A DNA stretch of 64,000 bases from Lama guanicoe (GCA_013239625.1 MU053758.1:310001-374000), one strand, 5' to 3'; positions 5,114-56,000 are shown, numbered from the stretch's first letter. Translations and numbers: made by a program. The notes: generated by a model not told the origin, from the sequence alone.

Positions 5114-5271
5114 TTTTTTTTTTTTTTTGCAGTATAGTCAGTTTACAATGTTGTGTTCATTTCTGATGTACAGCACAATTCTTTACTTATACGTGAATAT
5201 ACATTTATTCATTTTCATATTCTTTTTCACCATAAGCTACTAAAAGATTTTGAATATATTTCCTTGTGCTG
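5114..5271 (-). mobile_element. Young 5'-truncated L1 3' end
   Basis: Clean poly-T tail; perfect 18-bp TSD tggaatgcaatccattct at 5096-5113 and 5272-5289. Confidence 0.85.
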
Positions 5272-5992: not shown

Positions 5993-8900
5993 GTCAAGAT
6001 ACGATGTAATATACAGTATCATCTAAGTATACATGCTTCCCAAATCAATTCTTTGAAGCAGAAACTATTACTGTCCCCATTTTATAGGAAGGTACACTAA
6101 AGTGCAGAAAGGGCATGTTGCTTCACTTCCCCCTACCAGGAAGCATAGGTGGATCTGTCTCCAAAGCCCTCACCCCTACTCGGGAGTTTCACAGCCTTCC
6201 ATATGCTAGGTGCTGAACTTTATTGTTTCATTTTATTTAATTCTCTTGTCACAGAGTGAGATAGGGGAGATCATTCCAGAGAAAACCACTAGCCAACACT
6301 GGCAAAAAGCCCTCAAATTAACAAGACACTTGCTTCACACTTGGGCAGATTTTGTTTTCTTATCCCCAATTTAGAGATGAGCAAGCTAAGGCTCTGAGTG
6401 GAAAAGGGCTTTTCCCAAAGCCAGACAACCCCCACCTCTTTCCCCAAGCAGAGTGGAGGGCAGGTGGAGCTGGGGCTTGAGTCCTTCTACTCCTCTCTCC
6501 CCACCCTGCCAGGCGACTCCCTAATCTAACTAATGAGGGGCATGTTTTCTGAAGTTGCAGAAGGCCCTCCCCAACCCACAGCACGAATGTGTGTGTATTG
6601 TGTTTGGGCAGAGTGGGGAGGCTCACTGGGGTCTCTGGAAACTCCTTCATCCTTCATGCCCTCTTGCAAGGAAGAGGAAGGGAAAGCCTTCCCTTCTCAC
6701 ACCCCCCTTTTCCTTCCCCTGGGATGTGCTCCCACCTGGGAGAGAGAGGGGCTCAGGAATGCTGCCCTCTCTGGGAGGGCCAGACCTTTGACCTTTTATC
6801 TAATCGCACTGCTGGTTCTTTCCCTCCCTGGAAGTGACAGCCCTGTGACCACCCCCTCCCAATTCTGACTCTTCACGGCTGTTTTCTCTCCTCCCATACA
6901 TTAGGATGCAGCAGCTACAAAGGACTGAGCTCTTTTCTTAATACATGAAAGTAGACCAATCAAACAACAAACAAACAAACAAGACAACCTTTGAACACAG
7001 CAAGAAAGATTGGGGTTGGAACTAAGAGAGGAGTTCCAAACTGTCCCCTGTAGCAGATGGTCAAGAGAGGCTATAGGTAGTATACACTTTCTTTAAGATC
7101 CTTCTAGAAAGTTTCTGTCTTGACCTGAAGTGGTACTGGGGACTGGCGTGAGCAAAAATGCCTGGGACTGTGACTGTGTTTGTGATGTGAAGGGGGTGGG
7201 GTGGAAAGCTGGAGGTTGTCCTTCTAGGAATCAGAATAGACCAGATGACTCAGCAAAGTTTGTCAGGGTTCCAGTCACCTCTGGTCTCCTCTTCAGAAGA
7301 AGAACAAAATCTGCCACCTGGTGTCAGAGAGATCAGAGAGGGATGTCTGCTTTCTGAGTCAGCCAGTGAGCCTGAAGACCAAGCGAATGTCTGAAACAAA
7401 GTCCTCGGCAGGGAGGCTGCAGCCAGCCTTCTGAGTCACCTTGGCCTGGCTTCGATGCTGGGCCTGGAATGTCTGTGGTGGCCCCGTGGGCCTAAGGGGA
7501 GTGGTGAGTCACCACGTGAACTGGAAGAACCAGCAAGCCCCAAGAGCTCTTCTCCTGTTCCAGTTCTTATCCTGGGACCTCGATTCAGACACCAGGAGGG
7601 TCTGGGAAGCAGGACCCTGCGTTCTCATGCAACAGAACCACCATCACTCCCTCCCCAAGCTGATTCCCTGACTTCCCTGACTCCTCAGACAGCCACAACC
7701 GGACAAACTTCACCTTCTGGATCCTCAGCTTCCAACCCATCCCGGCTGTCCTCTCTGATCTCTCATGTCCTAGAAATTCTCTGCAGTGGACTAAGTTTCT
7801 GTTCCCCCCTGAGCCTCACCTCCCCGCCCTAACCCCTGCACCACACTGGACTCTGCACACCAGGACGCTTGCCATCATGGCATCACCAGACTGGTTGCAT
7901 TGCCAGTGGGTTTATTGAACTATTTTGATTAAGTCCAGCAGGGCTTTCCGATCCCCAAAACTTCCTAAGGCCATCTTTCCCATTCCCTGACTTCCCAACA
8001 TGCCCTGTGGGGGGCCTGTGGGCTTGCATGGGAGCTTGGCATCTTCTCTGATCTCCTTCCCTGGCCCTCCCCACATCTGTCCCTCCCCCAGGGCCCAGGC
8101 CACGTTCTCCCTAATCTGTCTGCTGCTGGCCATGAGAGCCAAAAATCAAAGGGAAACTGGGAGGAGGACTGGGGAGAGGACCCTACCAAGAGGGGGTGGG
8201 GTAGGGACCAAAAGTACAGCCAGTTTTCAGAGCAGCTCAACCCCAAACCAATCTCCACAGCACCAGGCAGGGGCTCAGGGCTGCCAGGACCCATCCCAGA
8301 ACCTTCCTTGTCTCTGGTTTGGCATGAAGACTTGGTGGTCCCAGGGAATGATGTCACCCTTTTTGGAGATGCTGTGCTTCCAGCAGGGAGGCCCAGGTTT
8401 CGACATAAACCCTTCTGAGTCCATTTACCAGACTGCTCAACTGGACGCAGGATCATAAGCAGTCCCCATATCCCCTTTGGAGGCCAAGTTGAAACTGATG
8501 TCTAATCTCTGCCCATTGATAGCTAGGAGATGGGATTTGGAGCGCTTGCCCAGAGAGAAGTTTTTCTCTCTGGTGAAAACTGGGCGGTGGGTGGGCGAGG
8601 TTTCTAGGAAGCCGAGGTGAGCAGCCCTCCCAGTCCAGTTACCTCTCATCCCACACAAGCACTTAATTTCATGCTGGAGCTGCTCCCAGGCTGGGGAATT
8701 CACCTGGAAAGGAAAGTGGCCTTTATTTAGACAGAGCAGGAGCGGGGCTGCTTATGGTTCAAAGTACCCAGGGCGAGTGGAGAAGGCAGAGCCTGGGCAG
8801 GAGGCCTCGGGGTCTGCCCAATGTGCGTCTGTGCTCTGCCCCTTCCAGCTCGAGAGCGCCTGTGGACAGAGCCAGGCACTAAGTGCTCAGAGAGGGGCAA

Positions 8901-10789: not shown

Positions 10790-11923
10790 GTAGGGGTGAG
10801 AAAAAAGGTGTCAGATGTAGGGAAGAGGGCTGGGGGGATGACCGGGTTCTTGTTTTCAAGGGGGAGGCAAGAAAGGGAGGAATCCCAGGCCAAGAGGAAA
10901 GAAGCTTAAGGGAAAAAACCTGCTAGCAGTCTGAGTGCAGATGAGGATAGAATCGGAGAGTATTTTTTATGAGCTACTGTTGCAGCAGGAGAGACTGTGG
11001 TTAGATCTCTGGAAGGACTGCTCAACAGATGACAGCATCTCCCTTCCTAATGAAAGCCTTAACCATTCATTTCTGTGTGCATCTGATCAAATTCTGTAAC
11101 TGGCTTCCCGTGGGCTGGGCCCAGGGGACAAGCACAGAGAGTCATCCAGAGATGCTGCCTGCCCTCATGGAGCATATAGGCCCAAGGGGAAAACAAAGAA
11201 CCACCCAGGCCAGCTTCCAACTGTCACGGCTCTGTCTGTGTTTTGGAGGACCAAGAGAGACTAGTTTGAGTAAAGAATTGGGCCTTCTCAGATGCAAGAA
11301 CAAGCCATATGCCCCTGTCAATTTGGCTACAGGAATCTGAGGCACAGCCATCAGACATGTACAAGGAGAGACACCATCACACAGAAGTTAAGGAACAGAG
11401 ACCTGGGCCCAGACTACCTGTGGGTAGACCCCCGGTCACATTATGCTGTGTGCTAAATGAATCTCTCTCCACCTTGGTTTCCTCATTCACCAAAAGGGGA
11501 TAGAAATAGTGTCTCCCTCCTAGTGGTGGTGTGCAGATTTAATGAGTTTATGCATTAAAGGGCTGCTAAAGGACGACGCGGAGTAAGTGCTGTTATGTAA
11601 GAGCGCACTAATGTTCGTATCCTGGGAACCCAAGGACTGAGTCGGGTCGGGCTGGGGCAAGAGAAGTAAAGGAGCCTTGATCCTTCTTTGCCCAGAAGCC
11701 AGAGCCTCACACACTGAGGATGCAGGAAGTGGGCCCTTGAGCTGAGGATACAGTCCGAGGAGCTTGATGCATGGACAAGAGGGTGTCTCCATAAAAACTG
11801 ACTCTCAAGAAATGAGCTGGTTCCTTTTCAAATGTCATCCTCCTGTCAGTGACAATCATTTATCCCCACACTCTCTGTTCCTACTGTCCTGGTTTCCTTC
11901 TCTCTCCCCTCCCTGCTCCTCAG

Positions 11924-12070
11924 ATTCCAAACTAAGGCCAGTGGCATCCAACCTCGAGGCCCCAGGTATGCCGAGGGGACTTTCATCAGTGACTACAGTA
12001 TCGCCATGGACAAGATCCGCCAACAAGACTTTGTGAACTGGCTGCTGGCGCAGAAGGGGAAGAAGGGCGA
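11924..12070 (+). CDS. GIP: GIP coding exon 2 (start of mature hormone, Tyr1 at 11967)
   Basis: FQTKASGIQPRGPR-YAEGTFISDYSIAMDKIRQQDFVNWLLAQKGKKG; ctcag acceptor, gtgagt donor. Confidence 0.98.
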
Positions 12071-12674: not shown

Positions 12675-13371
12675 GTGAGTCAGCTTATAGGGGAAGGGGT
12701 GGGGGTGGGGCCTCCTGACCCACCCCCACCACACTGTTCCGTCTCCCAGACTCCGGAGCCCTGCAATTCCCAGATAAGCATCCCCTTCTGAAACTCAGAT
12801 TTCAAAGAGGGGTCTTCACTGGACCCCTGGAGGTCAGCGCAGGCCTAAGGGAGAAGCTTGGGGGAATGGAGGCAGGGTTTTGGGGCCAGAGTTTCTAAGA
12901 CTGATGACTTAGTGTAGAGTCAAGGAGCAGGGTGCAAAAGAGACCTCAGAAACTGGCTTCTCCACTTATGCCTGCCAAACTTTGGGAAGGCTGTTTGTGG
13001 AACAGGGACCCTCTCAAGTCCAGTCCCCTCAGATCAGTTACCCCATCTCTGTAGGAAGGTGAGGAATCAATGAATAGTCCCCAGGTAATCTCTTGGGATT
13101 TTAGAATGCATTCTGGGACACTGGTAGAGTTGGATGGGTGGGCTGTCTCTCACCAGAATTGTCTTTGCTTGTGTTGAAGAGCCTCTATTCCCTGGCAGAC
13201 AGATCTGGGTGGAGCTTTGGAAGCTGAGATAACTAGAGGCAGCTGTGTTGACTCGTACCCCTCACCCCCGCCCCACCCAGTCCCACCACCTTGGAGTCCC
13301 AGGCCCTATATTTACTCTCTCTGGGTGGGGCCCAGGCTAAAACAGCCTGCCTGAGGCTTCCTCCTTTGCAG

Positions 13372-41149: not shown

Positions 41150-42200
41150 CTAACGGGGCTCAGGAGACGACGCAGGGGACCGCTGGGTGGGGCCTCCGGG
41201 CAGCATTTTGCAAGGCTGGGGTGGGGAAGGGGGGAGAGGGGCGGCGCAGAGGGCGGGAAGGGGTGTTACTGAAGCGCGGAAGGGTCGGGTTTCGGGCGGG
41301 AGGTATGGGGGAGGGTGTCCGGACTGGAGACAGAGGGCTCACCGGAGGTGGCCGAGGGGCGGGGTCGGACCTGGGCACTCGAGGAGGGGCTTGGTGCGTG
41401 TGGGGCTGGGGGCGGGGGAAGAGGACTTGGATCCCGACGCTCCGGGCTGGCGAGACGTGGGCCCAGGAGCTGGGCCGCGGCGAGGGCAGCGCGGAGGCAG
41501 CGGGGCGGTGGTAGTGGGTAAGGGTGGGGGGCGGGGAAGGTCGAGCCCCGGAGCTCGGGGCTGGGGGAGGAAAAACCCCGGCTCACCGCTTGATCCGGAG
41601 GAGACACTGCGGCGCGGTTCGCTCGCCGTCCCAGTCAGAGCTGAGCGTGGGGTCCCAGTGGCTAAGCAGCGCGGCCCCATGGGCAGCGGCCGAGGGCGGG
41701 AGCCCGGGCAGCGGAGCCAGGCCGCTCCCCGGCCCCCCGGCCCCGCCCGCCGCCGCCGCCGCCGCCCACACATCCGGCAGGAAAGGCGGCCCGAACCCGC
41801 CGCCGCTGCCGCTAACGCCAACAACACCAGCGACGCCGCTCGCCCCAGGGCCCGCCGCCCCGGCGCCCGCCGTGGCCGTCGCCGCCTCCTCAGTCGGACT
41901 CTCCGCCATCGCGCCTTCGCTTCCGGGACTGCTCGGCAGCACGTCCGCCGACCAGAGCGGCCGCTGCTCCCTCCCGCTCCCGCACCACCGAGAGCCGGGC
42001 CAGAGTGTCCCCACCCTCGGCTTCCACGGCCCGGGCGGCGCTGGCTCCGCCCACCCCCGCCCCGACCAGCGAGAGGCGCTCTGCAAGAGCGTCCACTCCA
42101 CGGTCCTCCAGGGCGGGCGGGGGTCGGAGCTCGCCGGCCAAGCGAGGGTTCTGGGCCTGCGCGGCTCCCGCGCTCTGCGGGAGGAGGTTCCGAGGCGTGT
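41150..42200. promoter_or_regulatory. UBE2Z: UBE2Z CpG island/promoter
   Basis: Very high GC and CpG content around exon 1; GC boxes ~42045-42125; ETS-like CCGGAAG just upstream of the ATG on the minus strand. Confidence 0.85.
41587..41909 (-). CDS. UBE2Z: UBE2Z exon 1 coding part
   Basis: [22 protein letters not shown]...[17 protein letters not shown](R)|GTGAGC. Confidence 0.96.
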
Positions 42201-42999
42201 GTGGACATCTAGGTATAGTTGAGAGCCCAGTTCCAAGGATTATTTTATTTTCAAGTGTTGAAAGGGGAGGAGGGTAAGACCATTTCCCCCGTTTAGGGGA
42301 GTGACCCTCAGACATGCCGAAGAGGTGGGACTGGGGATCCAGCTTCCTAGTAGGGAGGCGGTGAGTAGAGGAGTTGACTCCGTTAGAGCCCTTCTTGTCC
42401 GGAAGACTGATTTATCCTTCCTCCCTGCACCCTCACCCACGGAGGGCAGACAGCAAGAGGAAGGAAGAAATCAGAACCTACGAGTGAAGAACTATCTCGT
42501 TTTAGAGTTTATTCAATATATATTTATAAAGGGCATGCTAAATGCCAGGCACTGTTGCTAGGCGTTGCCATAGGAATAATGAACCAGACCTAAAGAAGCT
42601 TGGTAAAAAGAAATCAAGCCTCCTAACTCCAAGCTCAGTATTTCTTCCCACAAGTCCTTGGATATGCAGGAATCAAGGGGCTGTGAGTTTAAATCCTGGG
42701 AGGATTCCTCAGGATTTTACTGAGATATGTAAGATGAAAAAGAATACTATGGACTAAGAAAAACAAGCCTTCAATAAAGAAGACTTTCCCTTTTCTCGCT
42801 AGCTAGAGTACAGGCTCATAATCTAACACTCCCAGCAGAACCTGGGGCAGCACTCAGTAACCAAACACACTGATTATTTCTGCAGCAAAGCATATGAATA
42901 TTCATACTAATGTGGGTACATTTATGAATATTCGTACTAATAGCCTCACTTTGGATTATATTTTGTAGCCAAATTTGCTTTTAAAAAAAAGAAGTCCTG

Positions 43000-50251: not shown

Positions 50252-50480
50252 TTTCAGTGGACTGTCCAGCTATGGCCAAGCCAGACTAGGGGTAAAGGTC
50301 AGATCCAGACTCTCAACACATTCCAAAGCCAAGATAGATTGATTTACAGGCCCAAGTAATCAGAGGTTAACTGCATCACATCCAACAGCTTCCCTAAAGG
50401 GGCAACATCATCAGGATGCCAAGCTCCTCTCAATTCATTCATTAAACAATGAAGTCTCCCACCCCGGAGGAGCAGCTTAC

Positions 50481-50519
50481 CAGAGCAGGAGGAATGAGTA
50501 GCGCCCTGGTGGTCTGCAT
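50481..50519 (-). CDS. ATP5MC1: ATP5MC1 coding exon 1
   Basis: ctgcag|ACTGAAAAA ATG; MQTTRALLIPPAL|GTAAG. Confidence 0.95.
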
Positions 50520-50999
50520 TTTTTCAGTCTGCAGAAGAAAAAAAAAAAATCCATTGACAGCCTGGTTGTTTGCTTATAGTGACGACCTTCGGTCGTCCCC
50601 TTCACCCGGCCTGTCGTCCCCGGACCACGCTCTTCCTCGAACCGTGCCCCAGATGAGGAGAACATTAGAGGTCAGAGGGACAGCGCGAACTCCCGGTCCA
50701 CCACTTTTAGAGCGACAGGTCTGCAAAGGAAGGTCATGGAGATCGAAAGTAGAGGAAGGAGACCCGAGCCCCAGGAGGGAAATGTTGCCCAAAGAGAATG
50801 GTCTCGCGGGAAGACTGGAGGCAGAAACTAGGCAGGTGCCGCTCAGGCTCCTGCCCATTTTACACAGCTGTCCACGGCCTGCTGGGACAGTTAATCGATC
50901 ATTACCGTTGGTAATTAACATTGTTAAGGCTATAGACCCCCATCGCCTTTCCCGGCCCGAGGGGCAAATGCCCCTCCACATAACCCTGCCGCTTGATGG

Positions 51000-51730
51000 C
51001 TTTCGGCCCCAAGTCACCTGCACTCCCACTGCCCTGCTGCCCCTGCTAGGACCACAGCGCTCGCCCGGCTCAAGGTGACTGACTCACCTCCCGGCTTTAG
51101 CCCTAGGACTCAGAGCTCAGCTACCCGACCCACGTGTCCGGGGCTCCCCCAACTCTCATTGGCCGCAATCCCCCACGCCTTCATTGGTTAACACCCTCAA
51201 GTCCTCCTTTCTTAGTGGTTTTCCGCAGCTTCTTCCTTTCTCTCCACAGGAGCTTCGTGGCAGTTCCCGCCTCCATGCGGGTAAAGGCGGGGTTTTTCTC
51301 CGAGATCTGGCTTCCGATTGGTCAATCCCTGAAGTGTTCGACCATAGAGTCGGCTGGACTCAGAGGTTCCGTAACATCCCGCACAAAATGGCGGCCAAGG
51401 TGGAAAGCTGCAGAAAAAGGCGTGGGAGAATATGACCGGACGCCTTCCGCAGAAAGACACATGACCTTGGACCTTAGCCTTCATTCGAGCGCTCGAGCCT
51501 TGAGGCGCGTTGCATGTTGGGATTTGTAGGCTGGTCAGCCCCCTCAGTTTCCGCGCCCCGCCCCATTCCCGGACGGCAGAGATCCCGCGAGATGTTCTTC
51601 CCGAGGCTGGGAGAGCCAACGCCTTTGGAGCAATTCGCGCCCTAGTGATTCGAAGAAGTGTAGCGTCCGCTGAGGAGCTTAAAGATCGATTGCCGGCTCG
51701 GAACTTCGCTAGTGGGCGAACGCGCTTATG
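51000..51730. promoter_or_regulatory. ATP5MC1: ATP5MC1 CpG-rich promoter
   Basis: Three CCAAT boxes on the minus strand (ATTGG at 51158, 51183, 51317), E-box CACGTG 51131-51136, YY1 motif AAAATGGCGGC 51385-51395, ERR-type TGACCTTG 51462-51469. Confidence 0.8.
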
Positions 51731-52323
51731 TGGACCTTTGCTGGTGTTGAGCAGTCATGTACTAGCAACCAGTTGGTTTCTGTTTTTTAAAAAAAAAAAT
51801 TTCGTGTTGTGACAACATTCTAAGGATAAAACACTTAATACCCTCATAGAGAACCGACCAAAGGATAGGAACAGGTAGTTCACTGAAGAAGAAATATAAA
51901 TGGAAGGAAAGAATGTTCTGCTTCACTATTCAAAGAAATAGAAGTTTAAACTGAACATTTCACATTTATCGAAAGAACACAGTTCTTTTTATTAATGTGA
52001 GCCAGGCACTTCTGTACTGCTGATGAGAGTATGAGTTGGAGCTTTTCTTGAAAGCAGTTTGGCATTGCTGACTGAAAGGCTTTGAATGGTCCATCCTGTT
52101 TGACCCAGAAATTCTTGAGGAATTGGGAGCCTTTAAACTCTCCATCCTCTTTGACGCAGAATATCACAGAAATCTATCCTGGAGAAAAAAAATCAGAAAT
52201 GCAAAGATTTTCTTCAAAGGATGTACCTTGCAGAGTTTATCAAAATTGGAAACAAGTAAATGATAGTTAAGTAATTTATGATAATTTCACTTGATGAAAT
52301 AAGCAGACATTTTAAATCATCTC

Positions 52324-53082
52324 TTTTGTTTGTTTGTTTTTCAGCTTAAGTAATAAAAATTTATTAAGAATTCCTGGAATGATGGTTGTCATCTCCCAGC
52401 CTCGAGGGAAGAACCAACACTAGAAAATCACCGAGACATCACACACTATCCCAACACCCCTGGCCAACATAAGGGAGGTTAGTCATTTCTCTGAAAATGA
52501 GTCAGTTGTCATTTATTCAAAAAGAGTTGGAGGGCAGATGCAGAGGGGACCATCACATGATACTGAGGCAGCATGAGGGTGTACTAAACCCCAAACTGCC
52601 TCCTCAAAAACCAGAAGAGAAAGAGATCCACTTCTCTGTGAGTTGAGTTCTTGATCACCAGGCTCAATGATTACCCTTGATGTAGCTATCACTTTGAGGT
52701 GAAACTTTCTCATGAAGTGAAATTTTTATGCTGTCGGTTCAGTACAAGCTTGTCAGCGGTGAGATAGAAAGGATTCTGTGATGGAGTGATTATCTTGTAG
52801 ATGTTCTGGGCTGCCCGGATCTTGTGCTATTTTGATGTAGCCAGAGTTCTTGCCTAGTGCTTCTCTGAGGCAAGTATGGTGGGGTAAAGGGTTCACCCAA
52901 GGTCAAGTCTCAATCCCTGGCCTCATCCTTACTCCCCTCACCCCAGCCCTCCTCTGGAGTGTCAGATATAAGATTGCATTCAGGAGGCTTGTGTCTGGCC
53001 CTATTTTGGTCCCTACCTGTGAACTTCCCTGCAGGCAGCTGCCAGGAACAGGAGGAAGCTTTAGAAACTGAGGCAAGTCCAG
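52324..53082 (-). pseudogene. 5'-truncated PHB2 (prohibitin-2) retrocopy, frameshifted, with 3'UTR and degraded poly(A)
   Basis: Minus strand 52869-52664 reads LREALGKNSGYIK/(frameshift)[36 protein letters not shown]...SDSYIKGNH*. This matches the PHB2 C-terminus ([62 protein letters not shown]). AATAAA at 52360-52365, A-rich tail 52324-52341, imperfect TSD (52313-52325 / 53083-53095). Confidence 0.9.
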
Positions 53083-56000
53083 TAAAGCCATGTTTCAGGA
53101 GTATTTTATACTGAGAAAAATTTCATGATGTAAGGCAAATTTTAAAGATGGAAATGCAGAACTGTGTAGTATTGTGAAAAAAATGGAAAAAAGATGAAAA
53201 GAAAATAAAACAGTATTAATAGTCAATTCTAGATGGTGTAATAAGATTAATTTATATTTTTATGAGCATGTATTAAATGTATAATAGAAATATATTAACA
53301 TTTATGCTAATCTGGAAAGTCAAGACTCTGGACTCTTAGAAAAAATATAAGATTGAGACTTCAGATATCCTGCCAAAATTGTATAATGGAAAGAATGTGG
53401 AGTTTTGAAATCATGAAGACTTGAGTTCCTATCCTGGCTCTACCATATAACTGGATATGTGTATCTGAGCAGATTACCAAATCTCTTTTGACTTTAGCGC
53501 AGAAAGTTACCATTTATCGAGGACTTATCACATGGCAAGCATTGTGTTAGGTTCATTCACCTGTAATAGGATTTAATCCTTACAAAAATCCTTTAAGTGG
53601 GTATTAGTATCCCCATTTTACAGATTTCTCCATGTTACAGAACATCTTTTTTCAAGTTTGGCATATTTGGTAAGAAGTGAAATCAGTATTTGAACCGAGG
53701 TAGGTCTGGGTCCAAAGCATTTAACCATTAGCTCTTGAGCCTCCCTAAAACTGGAGAACCTATAAAACAAGGTTAATACTACTTACCTTATAGAAATATG
53801 AGATAAAATAAATGCCAGGCGTAGGTCAGTGTTTGGTGAATATTCCCTGCCTGTTACTACTCTAGGACAGGTTATATTTTCATGGGGGTCATCCCTAACT
53901 TTGTCTCCACATATTAATTTTTTTTTCATAAACAGATTTATCACACAGCTCTACTCATAGCACACGTTCAAAATTGTCAAGTTTATCCTATGACCTGCTG
54001 GAAATCAGGCAGTTCAGTGCCATGTTTAGAATGTGGATTTTGGAGTTAAATAAGCAGGATTCAGATCCTAGCACTGCTACTTACTGTTGTGTGATTTGGG
54101 GCAAGACTCAACCTCTCTAAGGCTCTGTTGTCATCTATAAATGGGAGATAACTCTTTGTCAACAGTATTGTTAAGAGTAATTGAGCTAGTACATGTGGAG
54201 GTGCTCCTTTAATTATTGAAGTAAAAGGTGCTGGTAAACTAGGAGAGGATGTGGGAAGTGGAAGGTAGTTGGGAAACCTCAAATCCAGATCTGACATCTT
54301 GGGGGTTGTACCAGCTGTCTTGGAGAGGCCCAAAAACTTCTGTAGGAACTCTGAGAGGATTTCTGAGTAGGCAGAAAAGCTTTTGATGAAGGTGACAAAG
54401 GGTAAACTTGTGGGTAATAAGCCATCAGGTCCCTCTTTCCAAAGGCATTTCTGACTGTCTTTAAAACCCACCTCTTCCACCCAGAGTCTCATTTCACATC
54501 TTCACTTCCTTTGAGCCCAGTTCTTCACTCTTCCTTTAGAAGTTCATTTCTGAGCACTTAACAGCTCCAAGCACCGCACTTGGTGCTGGAAGTACACAGA
54601 TGAATAAAACCAGTTTTCACACTAAAGAAACTCAAAATTAGCAAGAAAATAAATAGGTAAATAAATGCTTAAAGCTATTACCTTAATAAGCACAACAAGA
54701 AAACTACCTGCAAAATACAAAGAAGGGAGGGACTAAGTCCACCTGGAGAGAAACAAGGAAGGTCTTTTTGAAAAGAAGAAAAAGATTTCTGGGCTGAGTT
54801 TTGAGGATAAACATATGTTGGCTAGATAGATCAAGGGAGAGAGTGACAATGGAAGACACTCTTCCAGGCAGAGTGAACAGTATGTGTAAAAACACAGGAA
54901 AGTTTGGTATGCCCAATCTTAGACCAGTCAGTCATGGCCAGGGGACAGCTGCATTATGACTGCCACATTTCCATTTCTGGCAATATGGCCAGACCAAGTA
55001 TTCTGAAAATCCTCTGCCACACACCTAAAAAGTTACATAAAATATAACAAGTATATTTTTAAATGCAGAGCCTTGTTTTTGACAGCTAAAAGAAAATGTA
55101 TTCTATATTATATCCGAATTACCAATTTCCCACAGTCTGAAAAAATACCTCCTTTGCCAAATGACCCAGCTGGTGATGATATATTCTGTAACAACAATAC
55201 TAACAAATATAAAAGGAGAGTTTCTTTGGCGGGGGTAAGGAGAGAGATGATTCATGGTGATAAATGCTAGCTTTTAAATGCATAGCTGAGCTCACAAGAA
55301 AGTAAGGCGAGTCCTTAGGGACCTAAAACAAAGAGAGAACATAAAACCAAGGCATTAAACATGTAATATTAAACTGAAGCCGCCATGGCTGGGAATATAG
55401 TGGGATAGAGATAGGGGTATCAGTCACAGAAATTAAGTGACTTGAGTTTTAATCCCCTGTAGGGAGAGAAGGGTTTGGAATCTGTATAAGATAAGGAGTT
55501 AGAATTGAAATTTCCAAATAAAGCTAAGGTCCTCAAAAGGCTACACCTTTTGAAGGATGGACTTCAGATGTGGACTACCATTCACAGGGAGGTAAGAAGG
55601 AAGCTTGTCTGCCTATTCTTGGGTCTGGGTGGGGACAAAAAACTTTCCTGAGAATTTATAATGACAAGATTATACTTTATGTTGAATTCAAATCTATACC
55701 CTGCGTCCAGGAATGTCCAAGCTAAGGAATTGACATTAAAAGTGGTTCTAGGCTGGGGATGTCCCTGGGACAAAACAATGTAAAACTCCTCTGGGCCCAT
55801 GCAGAATTCCCACAGTAACTGAAAAGTGATCTTCACAAAGAAACAATCCACAATGAGCAAGGATCAGCAAACATAACAAAAAGCAAGAATTTCTGGTAAC
55901 ACAATGTTCAGAAGGCAACTCAGCTTACAGGAGATAGTAAAATATTGTGATTAAGAGTATGGACTTTAAAGCCAGACTGCCAGTATTCTAGTCCAGGCAT

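Follow-up and report, generated by a model that had tools for sequence, protein, structure and literature searches.

The closest described relatives of the element analysed here are the Type-3 snoRNA retroposons (snoRTs), which were defined in 2006 (Weber 2006, PLoS Genet 2:e205; PMC1687206). In these elements, an entire or partial sno/scaRNA is followed by the whole downstream part of the intron, by processed exons, and by an A-rich tail. The template proposed for them is a pre-mRNA that was cut and trimmed back to the snoRNP, and whose 3′ part was spliced and polyadenylated. Thirty of the 42 human RPL10 pseudogenes, for example, are reported to be of Type 3, 18 with the entire snoRNA and 12 with part of it (PMC1687206). 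Many Type-3 elements had earlier been annotated as plain processed pseudogenes, their intronic part having been overlooked. The precedent consists mainly of H/ACA snoRNAs, and neither U89 nor SCARNA12 is mentioned in the main text of that report (PMC1687206).

RNAs that keep a snoRNA have also been described. SnoRNA-retaining transcripts are cytoplasmic and have variable 5′ ends, and there are, in addition, polyadenylated RNAs whose 5′ end is formed by a snoRNA (PMC11028025). More generally, semi-processed retrocopies are known (PMC3449122, PMC5470649). As for the gene concerned here, PHB2 is listed with an AT-AC U12 intron whose conservation extends from fly to human (Table 2 of Lin et al., PMC2831892, where this intron bears the number 5), and "the minor intron of PHB2" is named elsewhere too (PMC8034651). 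Human scaRNA12 is located in intron 6 of PHB2 (PMC12995542). It is described as a 270-nt C/D and H/ACA RNA acting as the guide for pseudouridine 46 of U5 snRNA (PMC10618143). Among the literature matches listed, no paper was found that brings SCARNA12/U89 and a minor intron together.

The window analysed here, a stretch of 64,000 nucleotides from Lama guanicoe, holds on its minus strand an old, dead retrocopy of the 3′ end of PHB2, a pseudogene presumably without present function. The PHB2-derived stretch runs from 53082 to 52344, as delimited by alignment to the parental gene in the same genome. Its template was a polyadenylated PHB2 RNA from which introns 7 and 8 had been spliced out and in which intron 6 was still present.

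When the assembly (2.05 Gb) was searched with the 759-nt finding, seven places were matched: the retrocopy itself, two blocks on contig C2396, and four further PHB2 retrocopies (C8898, C3031, C4172, and C3616). The 20 kb of C2396 that were examined carry an intact PHB2, with nine open coding exons that read from MAQNLKDLAGRL... to ...SLIKGKK. The sixth intron of this gene, counted from the ATG exon, is 417 nt long (minus strand, C2396:5074011-5074427; L008:8011-8427). It follows ...GCCAGGATG (AARM), with the boundary GCCAGGATG|ATATCCTTCTGC at gene position 11574, and its 5′ splice site reads /ATATCCTT. Near the other end lies the TCCTTAAC-like branch site CCCTTAAC, then 14 nt that end in CAC|CTC, the terminal dinucleotide being AC; exon 7 opens with CTC GGA GAA GCT (LGEA). 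U12 introns are marked by consensus motifs at the 5′ splice site and at the branch site, and by these signals the intron before the LGEA exon would unambiguously be classed as a textbook AT-AC U12 intron.

The same intron holds a snoU89 (SCARNA12) match in Rfam, with 240.1 bits over all 270 model positions, which extends from position 67 to position 321 of the 417-nt intron. In this genome, SCARNA12/U89 is hosted by the very intron of PHB2 that is of the AT-AC U12 type. Since U5 snRNA is common to both spliceosomes, this arrangement means that a U5 guide RNA is released from a minor-spliceosome intron. Beyond the gene, at ~1.2-1.7 kb from the PHB2 poly(A) site and on the opposite strand, Rfam also marks two precursors of the mir-8/mir-200 family (L008:4771-4841 and 5187-5259, plus strand; 63.5 and 53 bits). 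Their position fits conserved synteny with the miR-200c/141 locus, and a neighbourhood of this kind has been reported for human PHB2 (PMC4727242). With its nine open exons, U89 in intron 6, and the mir-200-family pair, the PHB2 gene on C2396 is the genuine parental locus.

The retrocopy matches this gene with E-values of 7e-61, 1e-56, and 3e-14 in BLAST. The matches on the minus strand of C2396 cover positions 1-290 (78% identity) and 387-739 (73%) of the 759-nt query from the finding. BLAST and a single local alignment agree on one collinear block, which comprises the last 218 nt of parental intron 6 and then exons 7, 8, and 9 (Table 1). The copy is on contig C1600 and the parent on C2396, so that the copy occupies a new genomic location. 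No further PHB2 pieces were found in the 64-kb window, where all three matches are the retrocopy's own blocks.

Table 1. Parts of the PHB2 retrocopy, from the single local alignment to a reference built from parental PHB2 segments; coordinates are those of the retrocopy in the window, and lengths are parental
Feature	Window coordinates	Strand	Identity to parent	K2P	Parental length	Remarks
Intron 6 part, whole	53082-52870	-	79.4%	0.245	218 nt	
SCARNA12/U89 3′ portion	52960..53082	-			~122 of 255 nt	Inside the retained intron piece
Retained-intron remainder downstream of scaRNA	52870..52959	-	82.8% over 87 columns			Ends at 3′ splice site; collinear with parental 11895-11990
Exon 7 equivalent	52791..52869	-	84.6% over 78 columns	0.175	78 nt	1-nt insertion in copy
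Exon 8 equivalent	52692..52790	-	81.8% over 77 columns	0.209	77 nt	
Exon 9 equivalent	52344..52691	-	77.6% over 331 columns	0.275	335 nt	Last codons, stop, and 3′UTR with AATAAA; ends at parental cleavage site
Poly(A) tail remnant, A-rich (tgaaaaacaaacaaacaaaagag)	52321..52343	-				23 nt; directly past parental cleavage site

Most of what a sequence-only reading had proposed for this stretch agrees with the parental gene. It had seen a minus-strand PHB2 retrocopy, and 53082-52344 is collinear with PHB2 of the same genome. It had placed the end of coding similarity at the LGEA-equivalent codon 52869, and the PHB2 coding match begins exactly there, CTC being the Leu of LGEA. The ~210 nt of non-coding sequence noted beyond this junction proved to be 213 nt (53082-52870); in this genome they match the PHB2 locus alone, where they are collinear with the 3′ portion of the intron that precedes the LGEA exon. 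The junction itself reads ...CCCTTTACCCCACCATACTTGC|CTC, as quoted. It had also been guessed that the terminal GC of the copied intron (52871-52870) was a decayed AC; the parental intron does end in AC, and the branch motif is likewise decayed, to CCCTTTAC (CCTTTAC, 52890-52884) from CCTTAAC in the parent. The suggested intron type, AT-AC/U12, was found in the parent, and the literature describes orthologues in the same way (PMC2831892, PMC8034651). The hosting of SCARNA12/U89 by the retained intron formed no part of that earlier reading.

The remaining features of the copy are those of a spliced and polyadenylated RNA, as the sequence-only reading had also held in pointing to a poly(A) remnant, an AATAAA, and a 3′UTR. 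The AATAAA lies at 52365-52360, and the A-rich tail begins 16 nt after it. Similarity to the parent stops at 52344, beyond which the parental locus continues into unrelated sequence. As predicted, neither of the downstream introns is present at the exon joints, and two of the three introns spanned have thus been removed in the copy. Intron 7 (370 nt, GT-AG) is missing with a gap-free exon 7/8 joint, and intron 8 (711 nt, GT-AG) is missing with an exon 8/9 joint that is exact within a few nt. The offset of a few nt at the latter is due to an 18-nt tandem duplication in the copy together with a 6-nt difference in the present-day parent. The duplication (52710-52727, minus strand) consists of two copies of a ...GAGAGTTTCAC-like unit within the exon 8 equivalent and arose after insertion. 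Translation from 52869 gives a frameshifted, stop-interrupted PHB2 C-terminus.

In the present-day parent, the exon 9 acceptor reads ...tttccacag|TGACAGC (L008 ~6775-6790; gene positions 13215-13235). Three of the other retrocopies (C8898, C3031, and C4172) record about six extra bases, GGGAAG-like (Gly-Ser), at the exon 8/9 joint. These extra bases reflect either a 6-nt in-frame deletion near the C-terminus in the PHB2 of this lineage or an assembly error.

Within the retained intron piece, the Rfam match to U89 (RF01294) extends over 52960-53232 on the minus strand and reaches 48.1 bits, against a cut-off of 44. Real U89 homology is confined to 53082-52960, which corresponds to model positions ~135/148-270 and is 77.0% identical to parental 11773-11894 over 122 columns. 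The 5′ half of the match is a forced full-length alignment on the AT-rich flank; GC content is 0.26 in the 300 nt upstream of the copy and 0.54 in the intron-derived part. The fragment keeps the H/ACA 3′ hairpin, the ACA box, the 3′ strand of the terminal stem, and the D box (CTGA). It is devoid of the C box and the 5′ hairpin, and many pairs in the remainder are broken. In its present state, it is predicted to be a non-functional scaRNA fragment. Because the fragment scores above the Rfam cut-off, automatic annotation would miscall a SCARNA12 gene at 52960-53232. A search of the whole genome with the U89 family gave three places, namely the parent, the copy, and one sub-threshold match. The last of these (C2396:4717617-4717862, plus strand, L017; 35.6 bits, cut-off 44) is ~356 kb from PHB2 and may be a related composite scaRNA.

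The copy starts just ahead of the H/ACA 3′ hairpin, 3 nt before its first paired base. Its 5′ limit, 53082, is set by alignment to the parent; the U89 consensus of Rfam, which is matched weakly beyond this point, would allow a limit as far as 53091-53098, 9-16 nt further upstream.

In the order of its parts, the copy is like the Type-3 snoRTs. Downstream of the scaRNA, the 96 parental nt that separate U89 from the 3′ splice site are all matched collinearly by 52959-52870. On the 5′ side, the copy begins at about model position 135-148 of 270 and is thus a truncated version. As it begins inside the scaRNA, it consists of part of the scaRNA, followed by all of the intron beyond it, the processed 3′ exons, and poly(A). 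By structure, the element would be filed as a 5′-truncated Type-3 scaRNA retroposon of SCARNA12/PHB2. A Type-3-like build has been known since 2006, and the present element is a further case of it, from SCARNA12/PHB2. Unlike the snoRTs of Weber, however, the PHB2 copy has an AT-AC U12 host intron, and the RNA in question is a composite C/D-H/ACA scaRNA. It also differs from a full Type-3 snoRT in that it is truncated within the scaRNA, without the diagnostic mature 5′ end, and in that no significant target-site duplication (TSD) was found.

Other known systems resemble the copy in part. The snoRNA-retaining, SPA, and cSPA RNAs are polyadenylated, keep the snoRNA intron, are bound by snoRNP proteins, and are partly cytoplasmic, which is the type of template that the copy needs; nevertheless, they are described from human cells and for other host genes (PMC11028025). 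The rodent preproinsulin I gene (Soares 1985, as cited in PMC3449122 and PMC5470649) likewise derives from a partly spliced pre-mRNA in which one intron was kept and others were lost. It is, however, functional, having kept a 5′UTR intron and a promoter, whereas the PHB2 copy is a truncated pseudogene that keeps just the 3′ half of the intron. The persistence of a minor intron from whose sides the neighbouring major introns are gone has been observed in RNA as well (Niemela et al. 2014, PMC4066798), although the RNA in that study is nuclear, targeted by the exosome, and from cultured cells, and no link to retroposition is made.

The remaining PHB2 retrocopies of the genome offer an internal comparison. 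The ordinary processed pseudogenes (C3031, C4172, C8898, and C3616) have the same parent, are 5′-truncated, and are missing introns 7 and 8, as is the copy in the window. Elsewhere in the genome, the intron-derived part matches the PHB2 locus only. A query made of parental exon 6, intron 6, and exon 7 returned three places, all accounted for by the parent, the retrocopy, and C3031. Two of the five PHB2 retrocopies reach the exon 6/7 joint. Whereas the copy in the window keeps intron 6, the U12 intron has been precisely removed from C3031, which reads ...GCCAGGATA|CTCGGGGAAGCT at this joint.

Divergence of the retrocopy from its parent is ~20-28%. By part, K2P is 0.278 for U89, 0.200 for the rest of the intron, 0.197 for the coding sequence, and 0.282 for the 3′UTR, which alone shows 77.3% identity over 300 columns. 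The parts have diverged to a similar degree (K2P 0.20-0.28), as fits a single event. The mammalian substitution rate is ~2.2e-9 per site per year. With both copies drifting at this rate, the insertion would be roughly 45-65 million years old, and older if the parent has been constrained.

The imperfect TSD proposed by the sequence-only reading was not above chance. Between the flanks, the best local alignment had a score of 17, whereas shuffled sequences averaged 13.9 (sd 2.4); of 2000 shuffles, 13.8% attained that score, and the pair that gave it lies away from the edges of the insertion. A 14-nt TSD may have decayed at ~25% divergence. The suggestion that the flanks belong to an old L1 fragment likewise gained no support. 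For each flank, the sole place found in the genome was the window itself (1 of 1), and when the flanks were compared with the window by sensitive BLAST, only weak, short matches appeared. Six of six read-through frames in the flanks were without Pfam families. No Pfam family was found in nine long open frames from other parts of the window either, and no host gene was identified.

The stretch that holds the copy was found in 20 runs with five organism labels from seven studies, at 0.90-0.96 of sampled words. Contigs from three of four runs span 51800-52373, across the 3′ junction, without difference; on 52374-53600 little but short stray pieces fell, a gap that carries no weight because records are removed by a filter, and one run yielded no long piece. 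The stretch is real DNA and no assembly quirk. No empty insertion site was seen among these near-identical runs, which are too close to date the insertion. Two other regions of the window stand out by their composition or their open frames. Positions 50450-51800, at 0.5-1.9 kb from the retrocopy tail, are GC-rich (0.54-0.60, against 0.31-0.40 around them), and each strand has open frames there, 169-210 aa in length, with no Pfam families in the three that were searched; the region may represent a CpG island or a further insert. Positions 41154-42280, ~1.1 kb, have several open frames, the longest of 352 aa, distributed over both strands, with no Pfam families in the two that were searched.

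As to why intron 6 was kept, it is moderately probable that the template was linked to the scaRNA and that the anatomy is that of a 5′-truncated Type-3 sno/scaRNA retroposon. The copy would have been made tens of millions of years ago, in the germline or in an early embryo, by target-primed reverse transcription of the LINE-1 type. Intron 6 would be present mainly because it bore the scaRNA. The template may have been a host transcript bound by scaRNP, either intron-retaining or trimmed at its 5′ side and without a 5′ splice site, as for Type-3 snoRTs; alternatively, it may have been a snoRNA-retaining or SPA-like RNA. The 5′ end of the copy could then reflect either arrest of the reverse transcriptase or a template RNA that ended close to the base of the H/ACA 3′ hairpin. 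A contribution from slow U12 splicing is possible, but not required.

The sequence-only reading had taken the locus for a fossil of rate-limiting U12 splicing. The part of this claim that stands is the polyadenylated RNA with the U12 intron kept and the downstream introns out; the cause is confounded by the presence of SCARNA12/U89 in the same intron, so that retention is not creditable specifically to slow U12 splicing. Stated in full, the alternative is that slow splicing by the minor spliceosome left the U12 intron in a spliced, polyadenylated mRNA, which was copied by LINE-1 up to a stop set by chance, the scaRNA being incidental. This is possible but on the whole unlikely. In its favour, the retained intron is an unambiguous AT-AC U12 intron, and it lies upstream of two removed introns of U2 type, against a simple 5′-to-3′ order of removal. 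It has also been reported that U12 introns are retained about 2-fold more than their neighbours, although the unspliced U12 transcripts of the same report are nuclear and degraded by the exosome (PMC4066798). A stop by chance poses little difficulty, as 5′ truncation is the rule among PHB2 retrocopies (five of five, by BLAST extents), which makes a chance truncation inside the scaRNA plausible; a plain intron-retaining mRNA truncated in this way would fit the sequence equally well.

Nevertheless, only one of the three spanned introns was kept, which leaves a 1 in 3 chance of its being the U12 one, and a single copy therefore lends little statistical weight to slow U12 splicing as the cause. 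The one other retrocopy at the exon 6/7 joint, C3031, is spliced there. Moreover, the intron is also the scaRNA host, and snoRNA host introns have a strong precedent for this exact structure (PMC1687206). No report tying U12 retention to retrocopies was found in literature searches; in the portions available, Baertsch 2008 contains no mention of "U12", and Olthof 2019 none of snoRNA or PHB2. The link to the scaRNA thus has stronger precedent than U12 kinetics. The two causes are not mutually exclusive, and one copy cannot separate them, nor can sequence alone decide. Perhaps slow minor splicing and scaRNP assembly act together, SCARNA12 lying in a U12 intron, so that PHB2 regularly yields a stable, polyadenylated, partly cytoplasmic RNA with intron 6 that is open to LINE-1; in that case, U12 introns would more generally be over-represented among the introns kept in retrocopies. 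This combination is a speculative one, to which only a low probability is given.

Much less probable still is a template that began inside intron 6, by an intronic start or by independent transcription near the scaRNA, with the intron piece as its first exon. The copy does begin within the intron, with nothing of PHB2 upstream, and levels of scaRNA12 and PHB2 were uncorrelated in two human studies (PMC10618143, PMC12995542). However, transcription would hardly be expected to start in the middle of a scaRNA, truncation at the 5′ side is a simpler account, and human scaRNA12 has been expressed from its intron when this was placed between the splice sites of a vector (PMC12995542). A partial duplication of PHB2 at the DNA level with later loss of two introns, or an assembly artefact, is very improbable: the lack of a significant TSD would suit the former, but two introns are missing at exon joints, an A-rich tail follows AATAAA by 16 nt, at the cleavage site, copy and parent are on different contigs, and the presence of the stretch in 20 runs from seven studies speaks against an artefact. 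Hardly any credence goes, likewise, to a lariat-3′-exon intermediate left after step 1 of U12 splicing, polyadenylated and spliced downstream, which also leaves the 3′ end of the intron joined to exon 7 but would have required the reverse transcriptase to cross the 2′-5′ branch, as the copy runs 190 nt upstream of the branch-site motif.

As a single locus, this decayed pseudogene matters little. What appears to be a "U12 intron fossil" has, however, a better-precedented account, in which the intron is there as a scaRNA host. Consequently, surveys that read minor-intron kinetics from retrocopies must exclude or model the host introns of sno/scaRNAs. A guide RNA for U5 snRNA within a minor-spliceosome intron is, in addition, a natural test case for the interplay of snoRNP assembly with U12 splicing. 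If U12 splicing and scaRNP assembly did act jointly, pseudogenes would preserve a usable record of how minor introns were retained in the germline.
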